DNA of 64,000 nucleotides from a plasmid: the NCBI RefSeq assembly GCF_056712565.1, contig NZ_JBWXXM010000003.1; one strand, 5' to 3'. The notes beneath the pieces were generated by a model. The model had not been told where the DNA came from. It did no database searches and worked only from the letters and a program-made list of their open reading frames with translations. The translations under genes and the position numbers were made by a program. Of the stretch, positions 26,633-54,360 are shown one piece after another (position 1 is the first letter of the stretch; each line of letters opens with the position of its first letter).

Positions 26633-27019
26633 TGCTCATTTCCTCAAAAAATACAAGAAAAGAATTAGTATTCTAACAAAAAGTGAAATAAATTGTATCA
26701 AACTCCCTCTTTTAATCCTGTTGAGTAAATCAGCTTTTGCAATAGGATTGAAAGAGTGTAAGTGGAATCTCTTCCGGATACTCGTTACCACCGTGGCTAG
26801 AATATCTACGGCTGCGGGCCAGTAATAGATTAAGTGATAACAGCTGTCTGGAAATGTAGGGGCGTATCCACTAATCATAATCATTGTGAGATAAATATTA
26901 CGGGGCATTTTATAATGAATAAAATATACTCTCTAAAATATTGTCATATTACCAATACCATGAAGGTGATGCTGCCAACTTACTGATTTAGTGTATGATG
27001 GTGTTTTTGAGGTGCTCCA

Positions 27020-27295
27020 GTGGCTTCTGTTTCTATCAGCTGTCCCTCCTGTTCAGCTACTGACGGGGTGGTGCGTAACGGCAAAAGCACCGCCGGACAT
27101 CAGCGCTATCTCTGCTCTCACTGCCGTAAAACATGGCAACTGCAGTTCACTTACACCGCTTCTCAACCCGGTACGCACCAGAAAATCATTGATATGGCCA
27201 TGAATGGCGTTGGATGCCGGGTAACTGCCCGCATTATGGGCGTTGGCCTCAACACGATTTTACGTCACTTAAAAAACTCAGGCCGCAGTCGGTAA
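27020..27295 (+). CDS. insA: IS1 InsA
   Basis: 91 aa identical to copy 1 InsA. Confidence 0.95.
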
Positions 27296-27717
27296 CCTCG
27301 CGCATACAGCCGGGCAGTGATGTGATTGTCTGCGCTGAAATGGACGAACAGTGGGGCTATGTCGGGGCTAAATCGCGCCAGCGCTGGCTGTTTTACGCGT
27401 ATGACAGTCTCCGGAAGACGGTTGTTGCGCACGTATTCGGTGAACGCACTATGGCGACGCTGGGGCGTCTTATGAGCCTGCTGTCACCCTTTGACGTGGT
27501 GATATGGATGACGGATGGCTGGCCGCTGTATGAATCCCGCCTGAAGGGAAAGCTGCACGTAATCAGCAAGCGATATACGCAGCGAATTGAGCGGCATAAC
27601 CTGAATCTGAGGCAGCACCTGGCACGGCTGGGACGGAAGTCGCTGTCGTTCTCAAAATCGGTGGAGCTGCATGACAAAGTCATCGGGCATTATCTGAACA
27701 TAAAACACTATCAATAA
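27214..27717 (+). CDS. insB: IS1 InsB
   Basis: 167 aa identical to copy 1 InsB. Confidence 0.95.
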
Positions 27718-27727
27718 GTTGGAGTCA

Positions 27728-28402
27728 TTACCGTGCACGGTAACGGGCCATATCAATGAGCAGTTCCTCTCCAATTTTATTTGCCCCTAGAGAGCGGCGA
27801 GTTTTCTTCACTTCAATGACAATCTTCTCTTTCTTCAGAAGAAAATCCTGTCTGGATGATGAACCTGCGAAGCTAGGTGAATTTTCTTCAGGTCTGACAT
27901 CATTAAAATGCAGCAGCAGAAGAGCATGAACAAGATCCTGTACATCATACTCGTCATTAATTTCAAGCGGCGTTCTGTCATTGTATCGTTGCTTTAATTG
28001 ACGACAAAAAGCTGGAAATTTATTGAGTATATTTATAATCAAATCCAGTTCGGCATGTTTTGTTGCTATAGTCGATGCCGTGCCGGAGTAAGTTAAATCG
28101 TCTCTGGCTGCATCAAAAATAGGTTTGTAATGTCTAACCAATCCCTGATAATTACTAGACCAAGCAATCCTTTGTGTATCATTAAAATCTTTGTAGTAAT
28201 CAGATTCCTTTCCATAACTGTCTTCAAGTAACTTTTTTGCTCTTGCAATCCAGTTATTACCTTTAGCCGAATCAATATATTCCTGGCTTCTGTGACTAAA
28301 TGCACTTGTTCCCATATATTTTGTCGACATGACAGAATTGTACTCTTGTTCAAGCACTTCAAATCTTTCAGCTAAGGTCTTCTTCGTCATAGCGCAATCC
28401 AA
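27728..28402 (-). CDS. hypothetical protein with PD-(D/E)xK-like motif; C-terminus and stop codon supplied by IS1 end (probably 3'-truncated)
   Basis: 224 aa; C-terminal region ...LLLLHFNDVRPEE...(25 aa)...KIVIEVKK fits hhhD...hhhExK pattern; stop TAA lies inside IS1 terminal GGTAATGA. Confidence 0.5.
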   Translation of the reverse strand: MDCAMTKKTLAERFEVLEQEYNSVMSTKYMGTSAFSHRSQEYIDSAKGNNWIARAKKLLEDSYGKESDYYKDFNDTQRIAWSSNYQGLVRHYKPIFDAARDDLTYSGTASTIATKHAELDLIINILNKFPAFCRQLKQRYNDRTPLEINDEYDVQDLVHALLLLHFNDVRPEENSPSFAGSSSRQDFLLKKEKIVIEVKKTRRSLGANKIGEELLIDMARYRAR

Positions 28403-29876: not shown

Positions 29877-30049
29877 TCTTCACGCCGATCAGATTACATA
29901 ATCCACGCGCCACCTGGACATTCAGGTAAAAAAGTCCAACTGGTGAGGTTGGGCTTTTTGGCTTTCCGGTTCTGTTGGTGGCTATGACCGGAGAAAATTG
30001 CTCTACACCTAACGCTTACATTTTATTTACAGCGTTTGATATCTTCCTC

Positions 30050-30094
30050 GCCTTTAACGCCTTTAACGCCTTTAACGCCTTTAACGCCTTTAAG
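30050..30094. repeat. 9-bp tandem repeat (GCCTTTAAC)x5
   Basis: GCCTTTAACGCCTTTAACGCCTTTAACGCCTTTAACGCCTTTAAG read directly. Confidence 0.9.
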
Positions 30095-30501
30095 GGGGGA
30101 AGATAGAGCAACTCACCGATGATGAATAAAGTGGACGAAGAGACGATAACTACACTCCCATCCAGGGGGGGGCTTTTTTTGTGGTACTGTAGTGTGGGAG
30201 TAAGTTCGGGTCTCATATTGAATGAGGCGATTGCGAGCTGCCTTTCATCGAAAACTAATGTCCATTGTCATTGTATTGTCTGACTCTATCTCGTAACAAG
30301 TCTTTGACACAAAGTTTTATATTTTTATCAAAGTGGACATGAGGGGAATTAAATTTGTGATCTTTTTCAAATAATGTGTTCTTGATAGTAGATTCTGGTT
30401 AGTGATATCTATTAACAATATATTAAATTTCTTTTGTATTATCGCTGATAAAACTACTGTATTGGTATACTATATATTATTGAGTAACAGGAGATATCAC
30501 T

Positions 30502-32004
30502 ATGAAGAAATTTTATCAATTTAGGGATGAACAGCGAAAGGAGCTTGAACAACATGATTTTTATAGTTTGATTTCTTCAGATTGTATAGCGTTGAAAGAT
30601 AAACTATTATTTGCTCCTGTTATGGCTCATTTCATAATGAACTTCAGAGACATGAATAAATGGGTTATCAGGTTTGATAACAATGATAATGAATATAAAT
30701 CTGTTATAAACGGTGGAACAATCGAGGATGAAACACATTCAAGATTGTTTCTGGAAGACTGGAGGAAACTATATATAGATGACAAACTTAACTGGAAAGC
30801 AAGTGATGTTATATACTGGTTGTTTATTAGTCGAGAAATGGAGTGTTTCCGAAAATTTGGTATTGATTTTATGAGACTTTGTGTAGATGATGGAGGAGAC
30901 CCAATACTTCGATATTCTCACTCCGAGTCAGGAGAAACTTGCGGTAATATATTCTTTTCAAGAATTAGTCCTATTGCTGATCAAGTTGCCAATCATTTGG
31001 GAATATCACTCCGTTATTTTGGAACATTTCACCTTAATCTTGAAAATGGACATGTATGGAAGTCAGAAGGTGTTTTTGAAAATATAGAGTTGTCACCAGA
31101 TTCTTATAAGAAAATGGCTACTCTATCAAAGAGAATGTTTGATATATTTGAAGGAATTCATGACTCTTTTTATAATTACCTGTCCAGTTATGTTCTTAAT
31201 GGAAGTCATCCGTCATTTTTTGAATCATTACCTGTAGGGAAAAATGTTGCACCTATATACCCTGAATTTGTGATAGAAAACAAAAGCCATAACGATGGTA
31301 GACATATTGAACATATAAACAATTACCTGGAAAAAATATCGAGTCATGAGTTCTTTAAATGGCTGGTTAACACCTCAATAGACCCTCAATTGAAATTGAA
31401 AAGTTTCATACCTCTTTGGATTGTTGATATTATGGGGTATAGAGATATTAATAAATATGTTTTTACATATGAACAGCCTGAATCAGAAAGTGAAAAGATT
31501 ATAAATGATTATGCATTACACTTGTCAGAGCATAGCCGTTTATTTTATCATGACTGGAAGTCACTTCAACTTGATGATATGTTACGTTGGAGTGCCAGTG
31601 ATACTCTTGAGTTTATTTTTCTTAATTCAGATATGGATATGCATAGAGAAAATATAGTTAAGTTTTCTTTGTTCGGATTAAAACACAGAGATCCTGTTAT
31701 CAGGTTCTGGTTTATGATGATACTGGAGTTAAGTGGAAAAGAATTTTTCTCTCATGTTGGAGATATAGCTTTACAGGTGGAAAGTAAATATAATATTTAT
31801 CTCCCATATTTATGTGGACGCCATGCAACAGAAAATGAGCATGAAGCATATAATAATATGTATGAGCATTTTATGGTAAAGGAACTTAGCCCTGAACAAA
31901 GTGATCTAATAATACAAATTACAGACATGGTTATGCGGTCATTATTGAATAATTTGGATATCTCATATCGATATGTAGTAAATAATTTATTGGCAGCTCG
32001 TTAG
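30502..32004 (+). CDS. hypothetical 500-aa protein with internal duplication, AT-rich
   Basis: ATG at 30502 with AGGAG RBS; internal repeats HSRLFLEDWRKLYIDDKLNWKASDVIYWLFISREMECF and HSRLFYHDWKSLQLDDMLRWSASDTLEFIFLNSDMDMH; terminator hairpin AAATCCCACTT-TTCA-GAGTGGGATTTGTTT at ~32040-32070. Confidence 0.6.
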   Translation: MKKFYQFRDEQRKELEQHDFYSLISSDCIALKDKLLFAPVMAHFIMNFRDMNKWVIRFDNNDNEYKSVINGGTIEDETHSRLFLEDWRKLYIDDKLNWKASDVIYWLFISREMECFRKFGIDFMRLCVDDGGDPILRYSHSESGETCGNIFFSRISPIADQVANHLGISLRYFGTFHLNLENGHVWKSEGVFENIELSPDSYKKMATLSKRMFDIFEGIHDSFYNYLSSYVLNGSHPSFFESLPVGKNVAPIYPEFVIENKSHNDGRHIEHINNYLEKISSHEFFKWLVNTSIDPQLKLKSFIPLWIVDIMGYRDINKYVFTYEQPESESEKIINDYALHLSEHSRLFYHDWKSLQLDDMLRWSASDTLEFIFLNSDMDMHRENIVKFSLFGLKHRDPVIRFWFMMILELSGKEFFSHVGDIALQVESKYNIYLPYLCGRHATENEHEAYNNMYEHFMVKELSPEQSDLIIQITDMVMRSLLNNLDISYRYVVNNLLAAR

Positions 32005-32789
32005 AAGAACAGCATTGGTATGACTCTGATGCTCCTTAAAATCCCACTTTTCAGAGTGGGATTTGTTTAATGCCCAGAACAGGGGGAATTTCCATTCATG
32101 CCCAAAAAATATTTTGATGTCCTCTCGCCAATTCTCGCGCTCAGTCCTTCCTGAAAAACCTCAGAATTCACGTAGCGCATCGCCGCTACTGCATCCATCA
32201 AAAAAAATGACAGCTTTTTTAATCATCTTGTGTTACTCAACTTACTGAAAAATGTGATTTATGAAAATGCCGCCGTCGGCATCAAGCAGTTGGCCAGCGC
32301 AACCGGCTGCATCGACCGCAACAAAAAAACTGAAAGAGAAAGCCCCTCAAATGAGGGAGAAAAAAAGGAAGTGCAGTCAACGAGAGGCGTAAAAAACCCG
32401 ACTGGTGAGGTCGGGTTTTAATACGGTTCCGGTTCTGAGTTGGTGGCTCTGACCGGAGGAAGTCACTCTACACCTAACGTTTACATTTTATGCACTCAGC
32501 CGCAGTATTGCAACTAACTGTGGTTAAGGCACCACATTTAGTTGTGTATCGTGGGTTTTATATACCTTATAATCATGAAGTTAGCCGTGTGGTGTGGCTT
32601 CTTCCTCTGCCCTTCCCGTTTATGCAGGTATGAACGATTTTAAAGTCCTGGCTGAACAAACAGGTGGTGCTGTGTTTAGTGCTCTGGCAGGAGGAAGTCA
32701 CTCTGCACCTAACAATGCGAGAGAACCGTTGTGACAGGCAGTGTAAGAGCAAGCAACGGTGATTTCCTCCAGTTTTACTGGAGAAACGG

Positions 32790-32885
32790 ATGATTAATCT
32801 GTTAATCATCGTTCTCAGGGCTGTGGTCGCCGTTGCAAACGCGCTGATTGCAATTCTGGAACTGATTCGCCAGTTCATCGACTGA
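32790..32885 (+). CDS. putative small hydrophobic toxin peptide (31 aa), DinQ/TisB-like, copy 1
   Basis: MINLLIIVLRAVVAVANALIAILELIRQFID; GGAG RBS; start codon inside perfect inverted repeat GATGATTAA-TCTG-TTAATCATC; coordinates approximate. Confidence 0.45.
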   Translation: MINLLIIVLRAVVAVANALIAILELIRQFID

Positions 32886-33707
32886 TGACAGCGGAAACGT
32901 AACTAAGGACAGGAAGTGAACCGCTTCCTGCCCTTTAACGTACTGTGATATTTTTCAAAAAAACTCACCAATATTCTCCTCGGCAGAAATGACATAACTC
33001 ACTGTAAAATAACAAATCATCTAAACGCCAGCTTTGTATTGAGCGCGTTGGCCAACGCCTTTATCAGCTGCGACCGCACCAGATAATTTGAATAAGATTT
33101 CCCGCATCACCTGGACATACAGGTTATTCTGTCCATACCTCATTAGTTACAACATTCACGCGTTCTGTTCCTTTATCCGGTGCCCTGTTCCAGTATATGT
33201 GCCCATATCCTGGGTTATTCAGGATAACCGCTTCCTTTTCGCCCTGTCCTGTCGTTCATATCCCCCTGGACAAAAATGCATTATCGGAAAAAATGTCCAA
33301 AATTTTTTTGGTGATCGGAATTTTTGTTGTCGGACGCACCTCTTCTTCAGGTCATAATTGCTGACACATCCCAAAAAACAGGAGCGGAGATTTAAAAATT
33401 GAGTCACTTACCCGCCAAAATTTTCCAGATTTCACGTAGCGTACCGTCGATACTGTATCCATCAACAAATGACTATTTTTTGAATGTGTCATTTCCTGTA
33501 ACCTACTGAAAAATATCAGTGAATGACAATATCGGCGACAGCATCGGAGCTGATAGCCAGTTTCCTGAATGCATATGGCCAGAACAGTAAATTTGAACCA
33601 GGTTCTCACGTCACCAGGCGACGTGTCTGGGAAACTGGTGAACAACAGGCACAGAAAAGCCCAACTTTATGGGGGTCAGTTCAGTGAGGTTGGGCTAAGA
33701 GAAACGA

Positions 33708-33803
33708 ATGATTAACCTGTTAATCATCATTCTCAGGGATGTGGTCGCCGTTGCAAACGCGCGGATTGCAGTTCTGGAACTGATTCGCCAGTTCATCGTT
33801 TGA
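33708..33803 (+). CDS. putative small hydrophobic toxin peptide (31 aa), DinQ/TisB-like, copy 2
   Basis: MINLLIIILRDVVAVANARIAVLELIRQFIV; same start-codon inverted repeat ATGATTAA-CCTG-TTAATCAT; coordinates approximate. Confidence 0.4.
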   Translation: MINLLIIILRDVVAVANARIAVLELIRQFIV

Positions 33804-34028
33804 TGACAGCGGAAACGTAACTCAGGACAGGAAGTTCCAAATAGCTCCCAGCCAGCATATGTAATTTTCAAAGGGGCAGTTGTTAACTCTGTAATAACGC
33901 CATGTAAAGTATTCCTGCCCCCTCCATGATCCTCCATAGTATTTCTTGAGTTAATTTTCAAAAAGCTTCTGATGGTGATGCTGCCAACTTACTGATTTAG
34001 TGTATGATGGTGTTTTTGAGGTGCTCCA

Positions 34029-34304
34029 GTGGCTTCTGTTTCTATCAGCTGTCCCTCCTGTTCAGCTACTGACGGGGTGGTGCGTAACGACAAAAGCACC
34101 ACCGGACATCAGCGCTATCTCTGCTCTCACTGCCGTAAAACATGGCAACTGCAGTTCACTTACACCGCTTCTCAACCCGGTACGCACCAGAAAATCATTG
34201 ATATGGCCATGAATGGCGTTGGATGCCGGGCAACTGCCCGCATTATGGGCGTTGGCCTCAACACGATTTTACGTCACTTAAAAAACTCAGGCCGCAGTCG
34301 GTAA
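34029..34304 (+). CDS. insA: IS1 InsA
   Basis: 91 aa. Confidence 0.95.
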
Positions 34305-34726
34305 CCTCGCGCATACAGCCGGGCAGTGACGTCATCGTCTGCGCGGAAATGGACGAACAGTGGGGCTATGTCGGGGCTAAATCGCGCCAGCGCTGGCTGT
34401 TTTACGCGTATGACAGTCTCCGGAAGACGGTTGTTGCGCACGTATTCGGTGAACGCACTATGGCGACGCTGGGGCGTCTTATGAGCCTGCTGTCACCCTT
34501 TGACGTGGTGATATGGATGACGGATGGCTGGCCGCTGTATGAATCCCGCCTGAAGGGAAAGCTGCACGTAATCAGCAAGCGATATACGCAGCGAATTGAG
34601 CGGCATAACCTGAATCTGAGGCAGCACCTGGCACGGCTGGGACGGAAGTCGCTGTCGTTTTCAAAATCGGTGGAGCTGCATGACAAAGTCATCGGGCATT
34701 ATCTGAACATAAAACACTATCAATAA
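34223..34726 (+). CDS. insB: IS1 InsB
   Basis: 167 aa. Confidence 0.95.
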
Positions 34727-34929
34727 GTTGGAGTCATTACCGCCTTGACCATCAGATAGTTATTTTGGTGCTAGGGATACTGAGTGTGAACAGTTAGCGC
34801 GCGTCCTCGCCAGTTAGCTCGCTACGCTCGGTTACACGACGGCTACGAGTACTAGTGATAATTATTGACTGAGGTATGTGCTCTTCCTGTTTCCTTTTTT
34901 GATGTGTTGCTCTCATTTTAAACAACTTT

Positions 34930-42650: not shown

Positions 42651-42876
42651 TAAAAATCAGGATTTATTTCAGGCTCCGGCAATACGCATTTATTTGTTCT
42701 GTCAGTCATCCGGCTGGCAGGTAATGAGAACGCAGGAACAGAAGGAGGAAAACACCGGAAAGCGTCAGATGCAGATATGAAAAAAGCAGGTCAGGGACCT
42801 GCTTAATCCACGCCGTAGAAATCGCCGCAATCGATTTTCACGGCTTCACTAACCTGTGTCATAAGGAGTTTCATTT

Positions 42877-43107
42877 ATGACAGTAAGTATTGTTTCACCT
42901 TCCGCAGCGGCTGTAAAGCCCCGCCGTCATCCCCGTTTCAGACGCGAAGACATCCCCGCGCCGGAAATTGACCCCGTGCTGAAAGCATTCGGGCGACACA
43001 TAGCCCGGAGTTTTCACCGGGGACGTGGTGTACACATCCCCGCCATGAAAAACACGGCTTTCGGGCAGGTGCTCCGCACACTTGAACTGAAACGCGCTTT
43101 TAACTGA
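42877..43107 (+). CDS. hypothetical leading-region protein (76 aa)
   Basis: ORF immediately downstream of Frpo-like repeat 1. Confidence 0.45.
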   Translation: MTVSIVSPSAAAVKPRRHPRFRREDIPAPEIDPVLKAFGRHIARSFHRGRGVHIPAMKNTAFGQVLRTLELKRAFN

Positions 43108-49992: not shown

Positions 49993-50267
49993 TGCGGCAA
50001 TAATCACACGGATTACCCGTGAACTGGTTGAACGACCAGATTATTTTCAGGGAAAGTGAGTGTGGTCAGCGTGCAGGGATATGAGCTATGATGTGCCCGG
50101 CGCTTGAGGCTTTCTGCCTCATGACGTGAAGGTGGTTTGTTACCGTGTTGTGTGGCAGAAGGCAGAAAGCCCCGTAGTTAATTTTTCATTAACCCACGAG
50201 GCCCCCTGTATGTCTGATCAACAACAGTATGGCCTCTTACCGTGCTTAATGCAAGGAGGAGTAAACC

Positions 50268-50429
50268 ATGAAACTACCGGGAAACGCCCTTATCTGGTGC
50301 GTATTAATCGTGTGCTGCACGTTGTTAATATTCACACTCCTGACCCGGAATCGTCTGTGCGAAGTCCGGCTGAAGGACGGATACAGGGAGGTTACGGCAA
50401 GTTTGGCTTACGAATCCAGCGGTAAGTAG
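50268..50429 (+). CDS. hok: Hok/Gef-family type I toxin (flmA/hok-like)
   Basis: [53 protein letters not shown]; overlapping upstream ORF in another frame (50126-50425) consistent with mok. Confidence 0.8.
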
Positions 50430-54158: not shown

Positions 54159-54279
54159 AAGAAATTTGACTTCGTTCAAATATCAGAGTTTTTATGATTT
54201 AAAAAGGTGACAGTACGAAAGATAATTAGTATATTAATTACGTGGTTAATGCCACGTTAAAATTTGAAATTAAAAATCG

Positions 54280-54360
54280 CCGATGCAGGGAGACGTGAAC
54301 TCCCTGCATCGACTGTCCATAGAATCCTTTGTGAGGAGGTTCCTATGTATCCGATGGATC
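54280..54360 (-). ncRNA. finP: FinP antisense RNA (approximate position, antisense to traJ leader/start)
   Basis: By F-like organisation FinP is antisense to traJ 5' UTR and start codon (traJ ATG ~54345); not verified by structure. Confidence 0.35.

Follow-up and report, generated by a model that had tools for sequence, protein, structure and literature searches.

A repeated plasmid element interpreted as two AgrB antitoxin RNA genes, one apparently intact beside the toxin gene dqlB and one degenerate

The element of ~100 bp that is repeated in this plasmid most probably represents two copies of the gene for the small antisense RNA AgrB, both on the minus strand: copy B, an intact antitoxin gene for the toxin gene dqlB-1, with which it would constitute an addiction module, and copy A, a degenerate paralogue (we give this reading as a whole a probability of about 0.9). 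The window, that is, the complete stretch of 64,000 nucleotides that was analysed, contains the two copies at 29926-30026 (A) and 32389-32491 (B), which in a global alignment share 88 identical columns out of 107 (82%, 10 gap positions), with unrelated flanks on either side and sharp borders of homology. Tested over the full model (positions 1-84 of 84), the Rfam family RF02891 (AgrB) matches both copies on the minus strand only, with 64.0 bits for copy B and 46.0 bits for copy A against a gathering score of 40 bits, and the E-values across the whole window, 1.6e-08 and 1.5e-04 respectively, exclude chance for either copy. The sequence-only reading, which had also proposed the Infernal/Rfam search, was correct in placing two copies here, each with two hairpins and a conserved tail (CTCTACACCTAACGYTTACATTTTAT), and its idea of a small RNA gene serving as antitoxin of the adjacent small ORFs is right for copy B, the ORFs being DqlB. 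Its order of parts has to be reversed, however, because the RNA is encoded on the minus strand: the hairpin and T-run that it placed first form the 3' terminator, while its "tail" is the 5' antisense seed of the RNA, beyond which follow the transcription start and the -10 box.

The gene in copy B, AgrB-B, corresponds to an antisense RNA of ~90 nt (32389-32478, minus strand) that is supported by the Rfam match, by 100.4 bits with our own covariance model (R1), by its fold and by covariation. The RNA begins with a single-stranded antisense region, continues with an internal hairpin (UCCGGU...ACCGGA) whose inner helix is GAG/CUC, and ends in a Rho-independent terminator, AAAACCCGAC-CUCACCA-GUCGGGUUUU followed by UU; the predicted fold agrees with the expected AgrB structure. 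Both a promoter scan and conservation point to a sigma-70 promoter on the same strand (32485-32513), composed of a -35 box TTGCAA (32513-32508), a 17-nt spacer and a -10 box TAAAAT (32490-32485); TTGCA and TAnnAT boxes occur at the same positions in 13 of 16 aligned rows. From these signals we infer the start of transcription, at about 32478, as well as expression of the gene. The promoter is divergent from the -10 box of dqlB-1 (32568-32573) and does not overlap the toxin gene.

Compensatory changes between the stems of the two copies had previously been taken as a sign of selection on secondary structure. One base pair has indeed been exchanged (A-U to G-C), but a second difference in the terminator stem is uncompensated on the RNA strand, where copy A has a C·A mismatch (U·G if read on the plus strand), and two sequences are insufficient for such a conclusion. 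Selection on structure is shown by a structural alignment of 24 distinct homologues, the covariation check suggested at the outset, in which covariation is seen in both helices: paired cells make up 91.9% and two-sided changes occur in 7 of 20 pairs, counts made on a model-fitted alignment, which favours the structure, and reached by none of 500 shuffles (0/500), with slid controls at 34-61% paired. The covariance-model alignment was used in place of a plain MAFFT alignment, in which the terminator was out of register (40% paired).

A quite different view, implied by the order of parts in the sequence-only reading, would be that the element acts on the plus strand, where it would terminate upstream genes in a Rho-independent manner and continue into a 3' region that is structured or processed, with no sRNA gene at all. 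Four to five T follow both hairpins on that strand, the stem irregularity of copy A becomes a U·G pair there instead of a C·A mismatch, copy A lies 50 nt past the stop codon of a 149-aa ORF, and thermodynamic folding, which does not discriminate between the strands, is at least equally good and even slightly better for the plus strand (z = -2.6 and -3.7). We nevertheless give this view very little credence, since the covariance models match the minus strand only, the conserved sigma-70 promoter reads the minus strand, and the asymmetry of G·U over A·C cells (28 versus 6) favours the minus strand. The "tail", moreover, co-varies with the toxin 5' UTR as its antisense partner, for which a plus-strand 3' region offers no reason, and the orientation of the AgrB family has been mapped experimentally (PMC3567139). 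A "terminator with a processing site" as the main function of the element is unsupported, the terminator being the 3' end of the sRNA; read on the plus strand, it may in addition stop transcription of the ORF upstream, and such a bidirectional role is compatible with the AgrB explanation without replacing it.

The 5' 31 nt of AgrB-B are complementary to positions 32683-32713 (plus strand) in the 5' UTR of dqlB-1, with 28/31 Watson-Crick and two G·U pairs, 24 of the pairs being contiguous. This segment, which contains switch element 2 (GGAGGAAGUC), is the sole AgrB target site found in a scan of the whole 64-kb window, and it is the partial copy of the tail that had been noticed earlier, real and identical to copy B at 28/31 positions. 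The duplex has a predicted energy of -56.9 kcal/mol (z = -12.9), a value obtained, as are all duplex energies here, from the 31-nt seed and its shuffles, RNAduplex on full-length RNAs having given inflated, loop-filled duplexes. The same arrangement recurs in homologous loci: in each of the 14 that were examined, AgrB and the toxin gene have opposite orientations, with AgrB 250-350 nt upstream. Rfam recognised 12 of these loci, and two from pOXA-48 (L013 and L014) were recognised by model R1 only. Where an ungapped 31-nt comparison in register could be made, the cognate AgrB and target match at 27-30/31 positions in 9 of 11 loci, and at L010b and L011 the proximal AgrB matches at 25/31, which is still the highest value in its row. 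Non-cognate pairs match mostly at 12-25/31, and close lineages cross-match like cognates (win_B against L002 and L003, 28+2; L015 against L010b and L011, 29+1). A loose pattern scan of genome contigs gave mostly chance matches among the matches listed, those of seeming relevance being in Citrobacter werkmanii, a Haemophilus-labelled contig of 1.3 kb, E. albertii and Pseudescherichia; the loci of the latter two contain no AgrB match.

The toxin gene dqlB-1 (32790-32885, plus strand) encodes a 31-aa DinQ-like type I toxin, MINLLIIVLRAVVAVANALIAILELIRQFID, which scores 72.4 bits with NCBIfam NF041473 (DqlB; cut-off 35 bits) and is listed in RefSeq as dqlB (WP_000609147.1). Its -10 box, TATAAT (32568-32573), identified in alignment A5, is nearly invariant over the 14 homologous loci (TATAAT, TATACT or TATGAT). 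By homology to the mapped dinQ transcript, the mRNA would extend from about 32580 to 32940, giving ~360 nt with a 5' UTR of ~210 nt ahead of the ORF and a stem-loop at the 3' end, and 5' processing would be expected at about 32640, the counterpart of dinQ +44. This mRNA is predicted to be strongly structured (minimum free energy -136.3 kcal/mol, z = -5.1). Alignment A5 and folding together show all of switch elements 1-4, the Shine-Dalgarno hairpin CUCCAGU-UUU-ACUGGAG formed by elements 3 and 4 (32767-32783) and a conserved G+C-rich 3' stem-loop and terminator (32905-32935). In constrained folding the Shine-Dalgarno hairpin was open in the 5'-processed form but closed both in the primary transcript and with the AgrB site occupied. 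Chromosomal dinQ has a LexA operator over its -10 box (TACTGTATGATTATCCAGTT), whereas at the dqlB-1 promoter of this plasmid the operator is absent and the window carries CCTTATAATCATGAAGTT in its place. We also considered the motif CTGG-N8-ACAG (32649-32664) as a LexA operator and rejected it, as it is a conserved hairpin of the 5' UTR that is present in dinQ as well and lies downstream of the presumed transcription start; binding of LexA to it is possible. Positions 32647-32666, inside the transcribed 5' UTR, correspond to a LexA-like motif that was published for pTF2 and is weak (HI 11.64, PMC12211044).

These features would fit a structural switch that has been shown experimentally for dinQ (PMC5066626) and is reproduced here for dqlB-1 in silico. 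Leftward transcription from the sigma-70 promoter of AgrB-B, divergent from dqlB-1, would yield an sRNA whose unstructured 5' 31 nt pair with the target (32683-32713) in the long 5' UTR of the toxin mRNA. Two features would keep the primary toxin transcript inert, the pairing of its 5' end to the AgrB site and the sequestration of its Shine-Dalgarno sequence in the hairpin; removal of the 5' leader would free GGAGGAA for pairing with UUCCUCC and thereby open the Shine-Dalgarno sequence. AgrB binding would block this GGAGGAA/UUCCUCC pairing, re-close the hairpin and probably invite cleavage by RNase III. Type I antitoxin RNAs are generally short-lived, and AgrB is presumed to be so likewise. 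After loss of the plasmid the toxin mRNA would outlast the decaying sRNA, and the membrane toxin would then kill the cell; this would make the module an addiction system.

Copy A is not equivalent to copy B and differs from it in several respects. AgrB-A (29926-30013, minus strand), at 86.7 bits with model R1, has lost the inner 3-bp helix of its first hairpin through a 2-nt deletion, carries the C·A mismatch in its terminator stem and five substitutions in its antisense region, and has a fold z-score of only -0.9. Its match to the dqlB-1 target is 23/31 Watson-Crick pairs plus four G·U (28/31 for copy B), within the range of chromosomal agrA, in a duplex of 13 bp and 9 bp with a predicted energy of -39.8 kcal/mol (z = -7.9). 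A -10 box TAAAAT is retained (30020-30025, minus strand, by alignment with copy B), yet the homology with copy B ends immediately upstream of it (30027 onward), and upstream of this box no -35 hexamer was found (best 2/6) nor any promoter reported by the promoter scan. In other plasmids the same gene has different lesions, with its 5' antisense part deleted in L136 and 5 nt missing from the terminator loop in L137. With no -35 hexamer, lower complementarity to the target and deletions that differ between plasmids, AgrB-A looks like a decaying paralogue; that it is non-functional we infer by analogy with agrA, as a substantial predicted duplex and the -10 box are both kept. As part of the overall explanation, and by the same comparison with chromosomal agrA, AgrB-A would be what remains of a module minus its toxin half. 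The truncated promoter is abutted by a 9-bp tandem repeat of ~5 units (CGCCTTTAA, 30043-30095, found by repeat search) that is single-copy in the E. albertii plasmid L137. Its unit is similar to the 3' arm of the stem-loop that terminates dqlB (CTTCCTGCCCTTTAACG), and this suggests, without proving it, that module A lost its toxin half by deletion, although the match of 15/17 is by itself near chance expectation.

It could alternatively be supposed that copy A is a working second antitoxin or regulator, either a back-up AgrB for dqlB-1, an anti-addiction RNA against the dqlB of competing plasmids, or a regulator of the neighbouring 500-aa ORF. Copy A does retain a complete sRNA body together with its terminator and -10 box, exceeds the Rfam threshold and can form the duplex described above, it is linked to the 500-aa ORF in both other plasmids compared, and several AgrB copies per toxin recur elsewhere (in L011, and seven copies in Citrobacter werkmanii). 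We regard a working copy A as unlikely, given its missing -35 hexamer, the end of promoter homology at the -10 box and its further lesions in L136 and L137; in addition, the analogous chromosomal agrA, with 25/31 matches, neither binds nor represses (PMC5066626). As antitoxin to another dqlB allele it was rejected, reaching no more than 23-24/31 with all 14 sampled targets against 27-30/31 for cognate pairs, and so was regulation of the 500-aa ORF or of the second toxin copy, dqlB-2, complementarity to the region upstream of the former (z = 0.0) and to the latter (z = -1.1) being no higher than in shuffles. More specifically, AgrB-A might have been kept to act in trans as an anti-addiction RNA, blunting the DqlB-mediated killing exerted by related modules of competing plasmids, or to tune AgrB-B and dqlB-1 as a decoy, which we consider decidedly improbable; if true, the locus would be one of toxin, antitoxin and anti-addiction instead of one module plus debris. 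The orphan AgrB-A was always found adjoining the 500-aa ORF, which is AT-rich, uncharacterised and without a match in Pfam, NCBIfam or PADLOC.

The debris includes a second toxin ORF, dqlB-2 (MINLLIIILRDVVAVANARIAVLELIRQFIV, 33708-33803, plus strand; 58.2 bits with NF041473, dqlB in RefSeq), which is the converse of copy A, namely a toxin ORF stripped of AgrB, promoter and 5' UTR. Its homology to dqlB-1 begins only ~15 nt before the ATG, and promoter, 5' UTR, switch elements 1-3 and the AgrB target are all absent from it. The Shine-Dalgarno sequence is changed from GGAG to AGAG, and the substitutions A11D and L18R place charged residues in the helix; dqlB-2 is probably silent or inactive. A dqlB-2 module is also found alone, with no AgrB, on plasmid pEA25_2. 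The weakened ribosome-binding site of dqlB-2 is joined directly to what remains of a copy-A-type AgrB terminator hairpin (AAAAGCCCAAC...GTGAGGTTGGGCT, 33655-33696, plus strand), which was rightly noticed as a partial third hairpin and matches copy A at 10/11 and 13/13 positions around a 19-nt insertion in the loop. The region to the left of this remnant shares homology with two other sequences, the left flank of AgrB-B and the 3' ends of tyrosine-recombinase genes. The conserved block that lies to the left of AgrB-B (32162-32253) and again to the left of dqlB-2 (33426-33515) was examined as another RNA gene and discarded, since it matches the 3' ends of tyrosine-recombinase genes from IncX-type plasmids. 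The whole segment lies between two IS1 copies, and the company of the recombinase remnant, the orphan dqlB-2 and the truncated module A might suggest that all copies, B included, are mere repeated DNA, recombination scars in an IS1-bracketed mosaic of which nothing functions today. We think there is scant likelihood of this, because the module of AgrB-B and dqlB-1 is intact in both promoters, target, four switch elements, ORF and terminator, its DqlB-1 has the same RefSeq sequence as that of plasmid L002, and homologous modules are active in experiments (PMC12365149, PMC12317039). One intact addiction module, an orphan antitoxin relic and an orphan toxin relic account for the repeats.

One of the nearest known relatives is found on the chromosome of E. 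coli K-12, the agrB/agrA-dinQ locus (Weel-Sneve et al. 2013, PMC3567139; Kristiansen et al. 2016, PMC5066626), where agrB represses dinQ and agrA (25/31) does not (PMC3567139, PMC5066626). AgrB-B shares the build of K-12 agrB: ~31 antisense nt at the 5' end, an internal hairpin whose loop is GCCACCAAC, and a terminator. As in K-12, the sRNA gene is divergent from the toxin gene, and the target lies in the 5' UTR upstream of the ribosome-binding site of an mRNA with a four-element switch. Both loci likewise have one well-matched and one mismatched copy (28/31 and 23/31 here; 30/31 for agrB and 25/31 for agrA in K-12). Unlike the K-12 locus, the present one is plasmid-borne, encodes DqlB (31 aa) instead of DinQ (27 aa) and has a 5' leader that is ~19 nt longer; its sRNA copies are separated by 2.4 kb with the unrelated 500-aa ORF between them, whereas agrA and agrB are in tandem, and it contains a copy A that lacks a -35 hexamer and a third, orphan toxin ORF.

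Plasmid modules of the same family, with agrB upstream and divergent, are known from pOXA-48 (IncL) and pOXA-484 (IncX3) (PMC12365149, PMC12317039); toxicity, its rescue by agrB and a stabilising effect on plasmids have been shown for such dqlB-agrB modules (PMC12365149, PMC12317039). An AgrB transcript of ~85-90 nt that neutralises the toxin has been shown for homologues (PMC3567139, PMC12365149, PMC12317039). The locus described here shares with pOXA-48 and pOXA-484 a complementarity of ~31-35 nt to the 5' UTR and the same presumed role in post-segregational killing and plasmid stability. It differs from them in sequence lineage, the AgrB of pOXA-48 scoring only 37.7 bits with model R1 and having no Rfam match at E <= 1, and the IncF locus combines one intact module with two half modules in a mosaic. 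More distantly, tisB-istR1 and zorO-orzO are also pairs with a trans-encoded, divergent sRNA, a long 5' UTR and an inert primary mRNA that is activated by 5' processing, but their toxins and sRNA bodies are unrelated. The AgrB terminator loop CCUCACCAG resembles OrzO (22 bits), and the OrzO-P antitoxin RNA (RF02083) was rejected as an identity of the element, with 22.3 and 22.2 bits against a gathering score of 60 and a match to the terminator only.

The locus belongs to widespread ColV-type IncF virulence plasmids (pS88- and pMS7163A-like), with at least 80% of the 4-kb region present in 53 PLSDB records, and IncF plasmids have already been counted among the carriers of dqlB-agrB, at 4.2% (PMC12365149, PMC12317039). 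Descriptions of the AgrB/DqlB family date from 2013 and 2016 and its validation on plasmids from 2025, and as family, mechanism and plasmid role are all published, no new question is opened by this locus, although the module is a likely contributor to plasmid stability. The significance of the finding is mainly for annotation: RefSeq names both dqlB ORFs and leaves the AgrB genes unannotated, and a RefSeq "hypothetical protein" CDS that overlies the AgrB-B terminator is probably spurious.

The main interpretation of the sequence-only reading, an sRNA antitoxin, proved right in our analysis; its strand had to be corrected, copies A and B turned out not to be equivalent, and the partial copies were reinterpreted. 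Copy A (AgrB-A, 29926-30026) and copy B (AgrB-B, 32389-32491) share 88 identities over 107 columns, have unrelated flanks on both sides, and carry the hairpins and conserved tail that had been described. When the whole window was scanned with Rfam, both matched the AgrB model RF02891 over its full length and on the minus strand, copy B with 64.0 and copy A with 46.0 bits (gathering score 40 bits). Read on that strand, the tail combines three parts: a -10 box (TAAAAT), the start of transcription and, at the 5' end of the RNA, a single-stranded antisense region beginning UUAGGUGUAGAG. The "second hairpin" is the AgrB internal hairpin, and the "first hairpin with T-run" corresponds to the 3'-terminal, Rho-independent terminator of AgrB. 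Thermodynamic folding alone did not separate the strands; the excess of G·U over A·C cells in our AgrB realignment (28 to 6) points to the modelled, minus strand. The compensatory stem change claimed between the copies holds for one terminator base pair (A-U for G-C).

The ORFs at 32790-32885 (dqlB-1, module 1) and 33708-33803 (dqlB-2, module 2) are DinQ-like type I toxins, with 72.4 and 58.2 bits to NCBIfam NF041473 (cut-off 35 bits), and both are named dqlB by RefSeq on identical plasmids, e.g. pMS7163A and pS88; the annotation inspected for these plasmids contains no AgrB sRNAs. The system is an already known family, described in 2013 and 2016 (PMC3567139, PMC5066626) and validated on plasmids in 2025 (PMC12365149, PMC12317039); Rfam and NCBIfam both curate it, and its carriage by IncF plasmids has been counted before. 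The practical value of our results is a better annotation of these plasmids. One RefSeq CDS, the "hypothetical protein" WP_000638861.1 (32254-32421, plus strand), overlaps the AgrB-B terminator inside a remnant of a tyrosine-recombinase region, and is probably a spurious gene call.

Module 1 is intact. The AgrB-B promoter (32513-32485, minus strand, TTGCAA-17-TAAAAT) has boxes conserved among homologues, and about 100 bp from it, on the opposite strand, lies the toxin -10 box TATAAT (32568-32573), nearly invariant in 14 loci as TATAAT, TATACT or TATGAT. After it comes GTTAGC, the counterpart of the 5' end that was mapped for the dinQ transcript. A small hairpin, TGTGGTTAAGGCACCACA (32519-32536), sits between the divergent promoters and is kept in two of the comparison sequences (L002 and L003). 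The dqlB-1 mRNA, with inferred ends at about 32580 and 32940 on the plus strand, is strongly structured on folding (z = -5.1). Over its first 31 nt, AgrB-B forms 28 Watson-Crick and 2 G·U pairs with 32683-32713, 24 of them contiguous (-56.9 kcal/mol, z = -12.9), and this stretch was the sole AgrB target site in a scan of the 64-kb window; it is also the partial tail copy noticed earlier, with 28/31 identity to copy B. Whereas chromosomal dinQ has a LexA operator over its -10 box, dqlB-1 has none there, and no SOS control is visible at the plasmid toxin promoter in this comparison of -10 boxes. The sequence TCCTGGCTGAACAAACAGGT (32647-32666) is, when reverse-complemented, exactly the putative SOS box reported for pTF2 dqlB (at -119, HI 11.64; PMC12211044); here it lies outside the promoter, within a hairpin that is conserved in the transcribed 5' UTR.

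The primary transcript of dinQ has been shown by experiment to be untranslatable; loss of 44 nt lets element 2 pair with element 3 and opens the Shine-Dalgarno (SD) hairpin, which AgrB binding over element 2 re-closes, promoting RNase III cleavage (PMC5066626). All four elements of this switch are present in dqlB-1, and in silico folding of its RNA reproduced it. In the primary transcript the AgrB site is sequestered by pairing with the 5' end and the SD lies in a hairpin (probability of being unpaired 0.01-0.09); when the RNA begins instead at the conserved AAAGUCC (about 32642), a GGAGGAA/UUCCUCC pairing forms and this probability is 0.11-0.77; with 32683-32713 blocked in that shorter RNA, the SD hairpin re-forms and it falls to about 0. 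By this modelling dqlB-1 would follow the dinQ steps, from an inert primary RNA to a processed RNA with an open SD that AgrB-B would re-close. That DqlB is toxic, that agrB counters this toxicity and that the module stabilises plasmids is known only from the homologues on pOXA-48 and pOXA-484 (PMC12365149, PMC12317039).

In each of the 14 loci examined, the strand opposite the toxin gene carries an AgrB 250-350 nt upstream of that gene; Rfam detects it in 12 of them, and in pOXA-48 and L014 it is seen only with our own covariance model, built on 14 homologues. Among 26 copies (24 distinct) realigned with that model, a fitting that itself favours the structure, 91.9% of cells were paired and two-sided changes occurred in 7/20 pairs, values reached by 0/500 shuffles, with slid controls 34-61% paired. 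For the 11 loci in register in an ungapped seed/target comparison, AgrB matched its own target at 27-30/31 positions in nine; for the proximal AgrB of L010b and of L011 the match is 25/31, still the top of its row. Non-cognate pairs mostly reach 12-25/31, and close lineages cross-match at cognate level (copy B with L002/L003, 28+2; L015 with L010b/L011, 29+1). An antisense pair would be expected to show just this kind of intermolecular covariation. A Citrobacter werkmanii contig (BBMW01000020; L033 4744-5797, L034 675-992) carries seven AgrB in the same orientation around two dqlB genes, two ahead of the first and five ahead of the second, so multi-copy arrays recur outside plasmids. An enterobacterial-type AgrB (85 bits with our model) on a 1319-bp contig of Haemophilus sputorum CCUG 13788 (L082, 419-506) probably marks a plasmid fragment or contamination.

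We read copy A as a decaying paralogue. It retains the sRNA body, terminator and -10 box; homology to copy B stops directly upstream of that box, and no -35 hexamer was found there. Hairpin 1 has lost its inner helix through a 2-nt deletion, the terminator contains a C·A mismatch, and the fold z-score is only -0.9. Its pairing with the dqlB-1 target (23/31) mirrors that of the non-functional chromosomal agrA (25/31; agrB has 30/31; PMC3567139). Weak activity on this target is conceivable given the residual duplex of -39.8 kcal/mol; none of 14 sampled targets fitted copy A better, and no complementarity was found to the neighbouring 500-aa ORF or to dqlB-2. In other plasmids it has additional lesions of other kinds, the 5' part being deleted in L136 and the terminator loop lacking 5 nt in the E. 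albertii plasmid L137. Directly beside the truncated promoter, there is a 9-bp tandem repeat of about five units (30043-30095, CGCCTTTAA), whose unit is similar to the dqlB terminator's 3' arm; the unit is single in L137, so its copy number varies.

Ahead of its ATG, dqlB-2 is homologous to module 1 for only about 15 nt. Further upstream lies the partial third hairpin, a terminator-hairpin remnant (33655-33696) matching copy A at 10/11 and 13/13 positions around a 19-nt insertion, and beyond it a stretch with homology both to the AgrB-B left flank and to tyrosine-recombinase genes at their 3' ends. Compared with module 1, module 2 thus has neither an AgrB body nor a regulatory 5' UTR, and both promoters are missing. 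The dqlB-2 SD is weakened and the helix has two charged residues. E. albertii pEA25_2 (NZ_CP117617.1, L138-L140) has a solitary module of the dqlB-2 type, 100% identical over 341 bp, adjoining the microcin J25 cluster; AgrB was not detectable on that whole 96-kb plasmid, and this tolerance suggests a silent or harmless module.

Between the two AgrB copies lies an AT-rich 500-aa ORF (30502-32004, plus strand) with no match in Pfam, NCBIfam or PADLOC, linked to AgrB-A in both other plasmids fetched (L136, L137). A 224-aa ORF abutting IS1 (27728-28402, minus strand) is similar to the PADLOC "Aga_Helical-REase" models over their C-terminal part (E = 4e-23) and may be a truncated defence-system nuclease. 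Two direct-orientation IS1 copies (about 26980-27750 and 33990-34760) bracket a segment of about 6.2 kb with all AgrB and dqlB pieces and both these ORFs, a layout that looks like a composite transposon. Further Rfam matches in the window, to the sok antitoxin (50098-50270), the traJ 5' UTR with FinP (54240-54351), the AS-pc01 antisense RNA (42781-42882) and the IS-element ALIL frameshift pseudoknot (598-714), are all as expected of an F-like plasmid.
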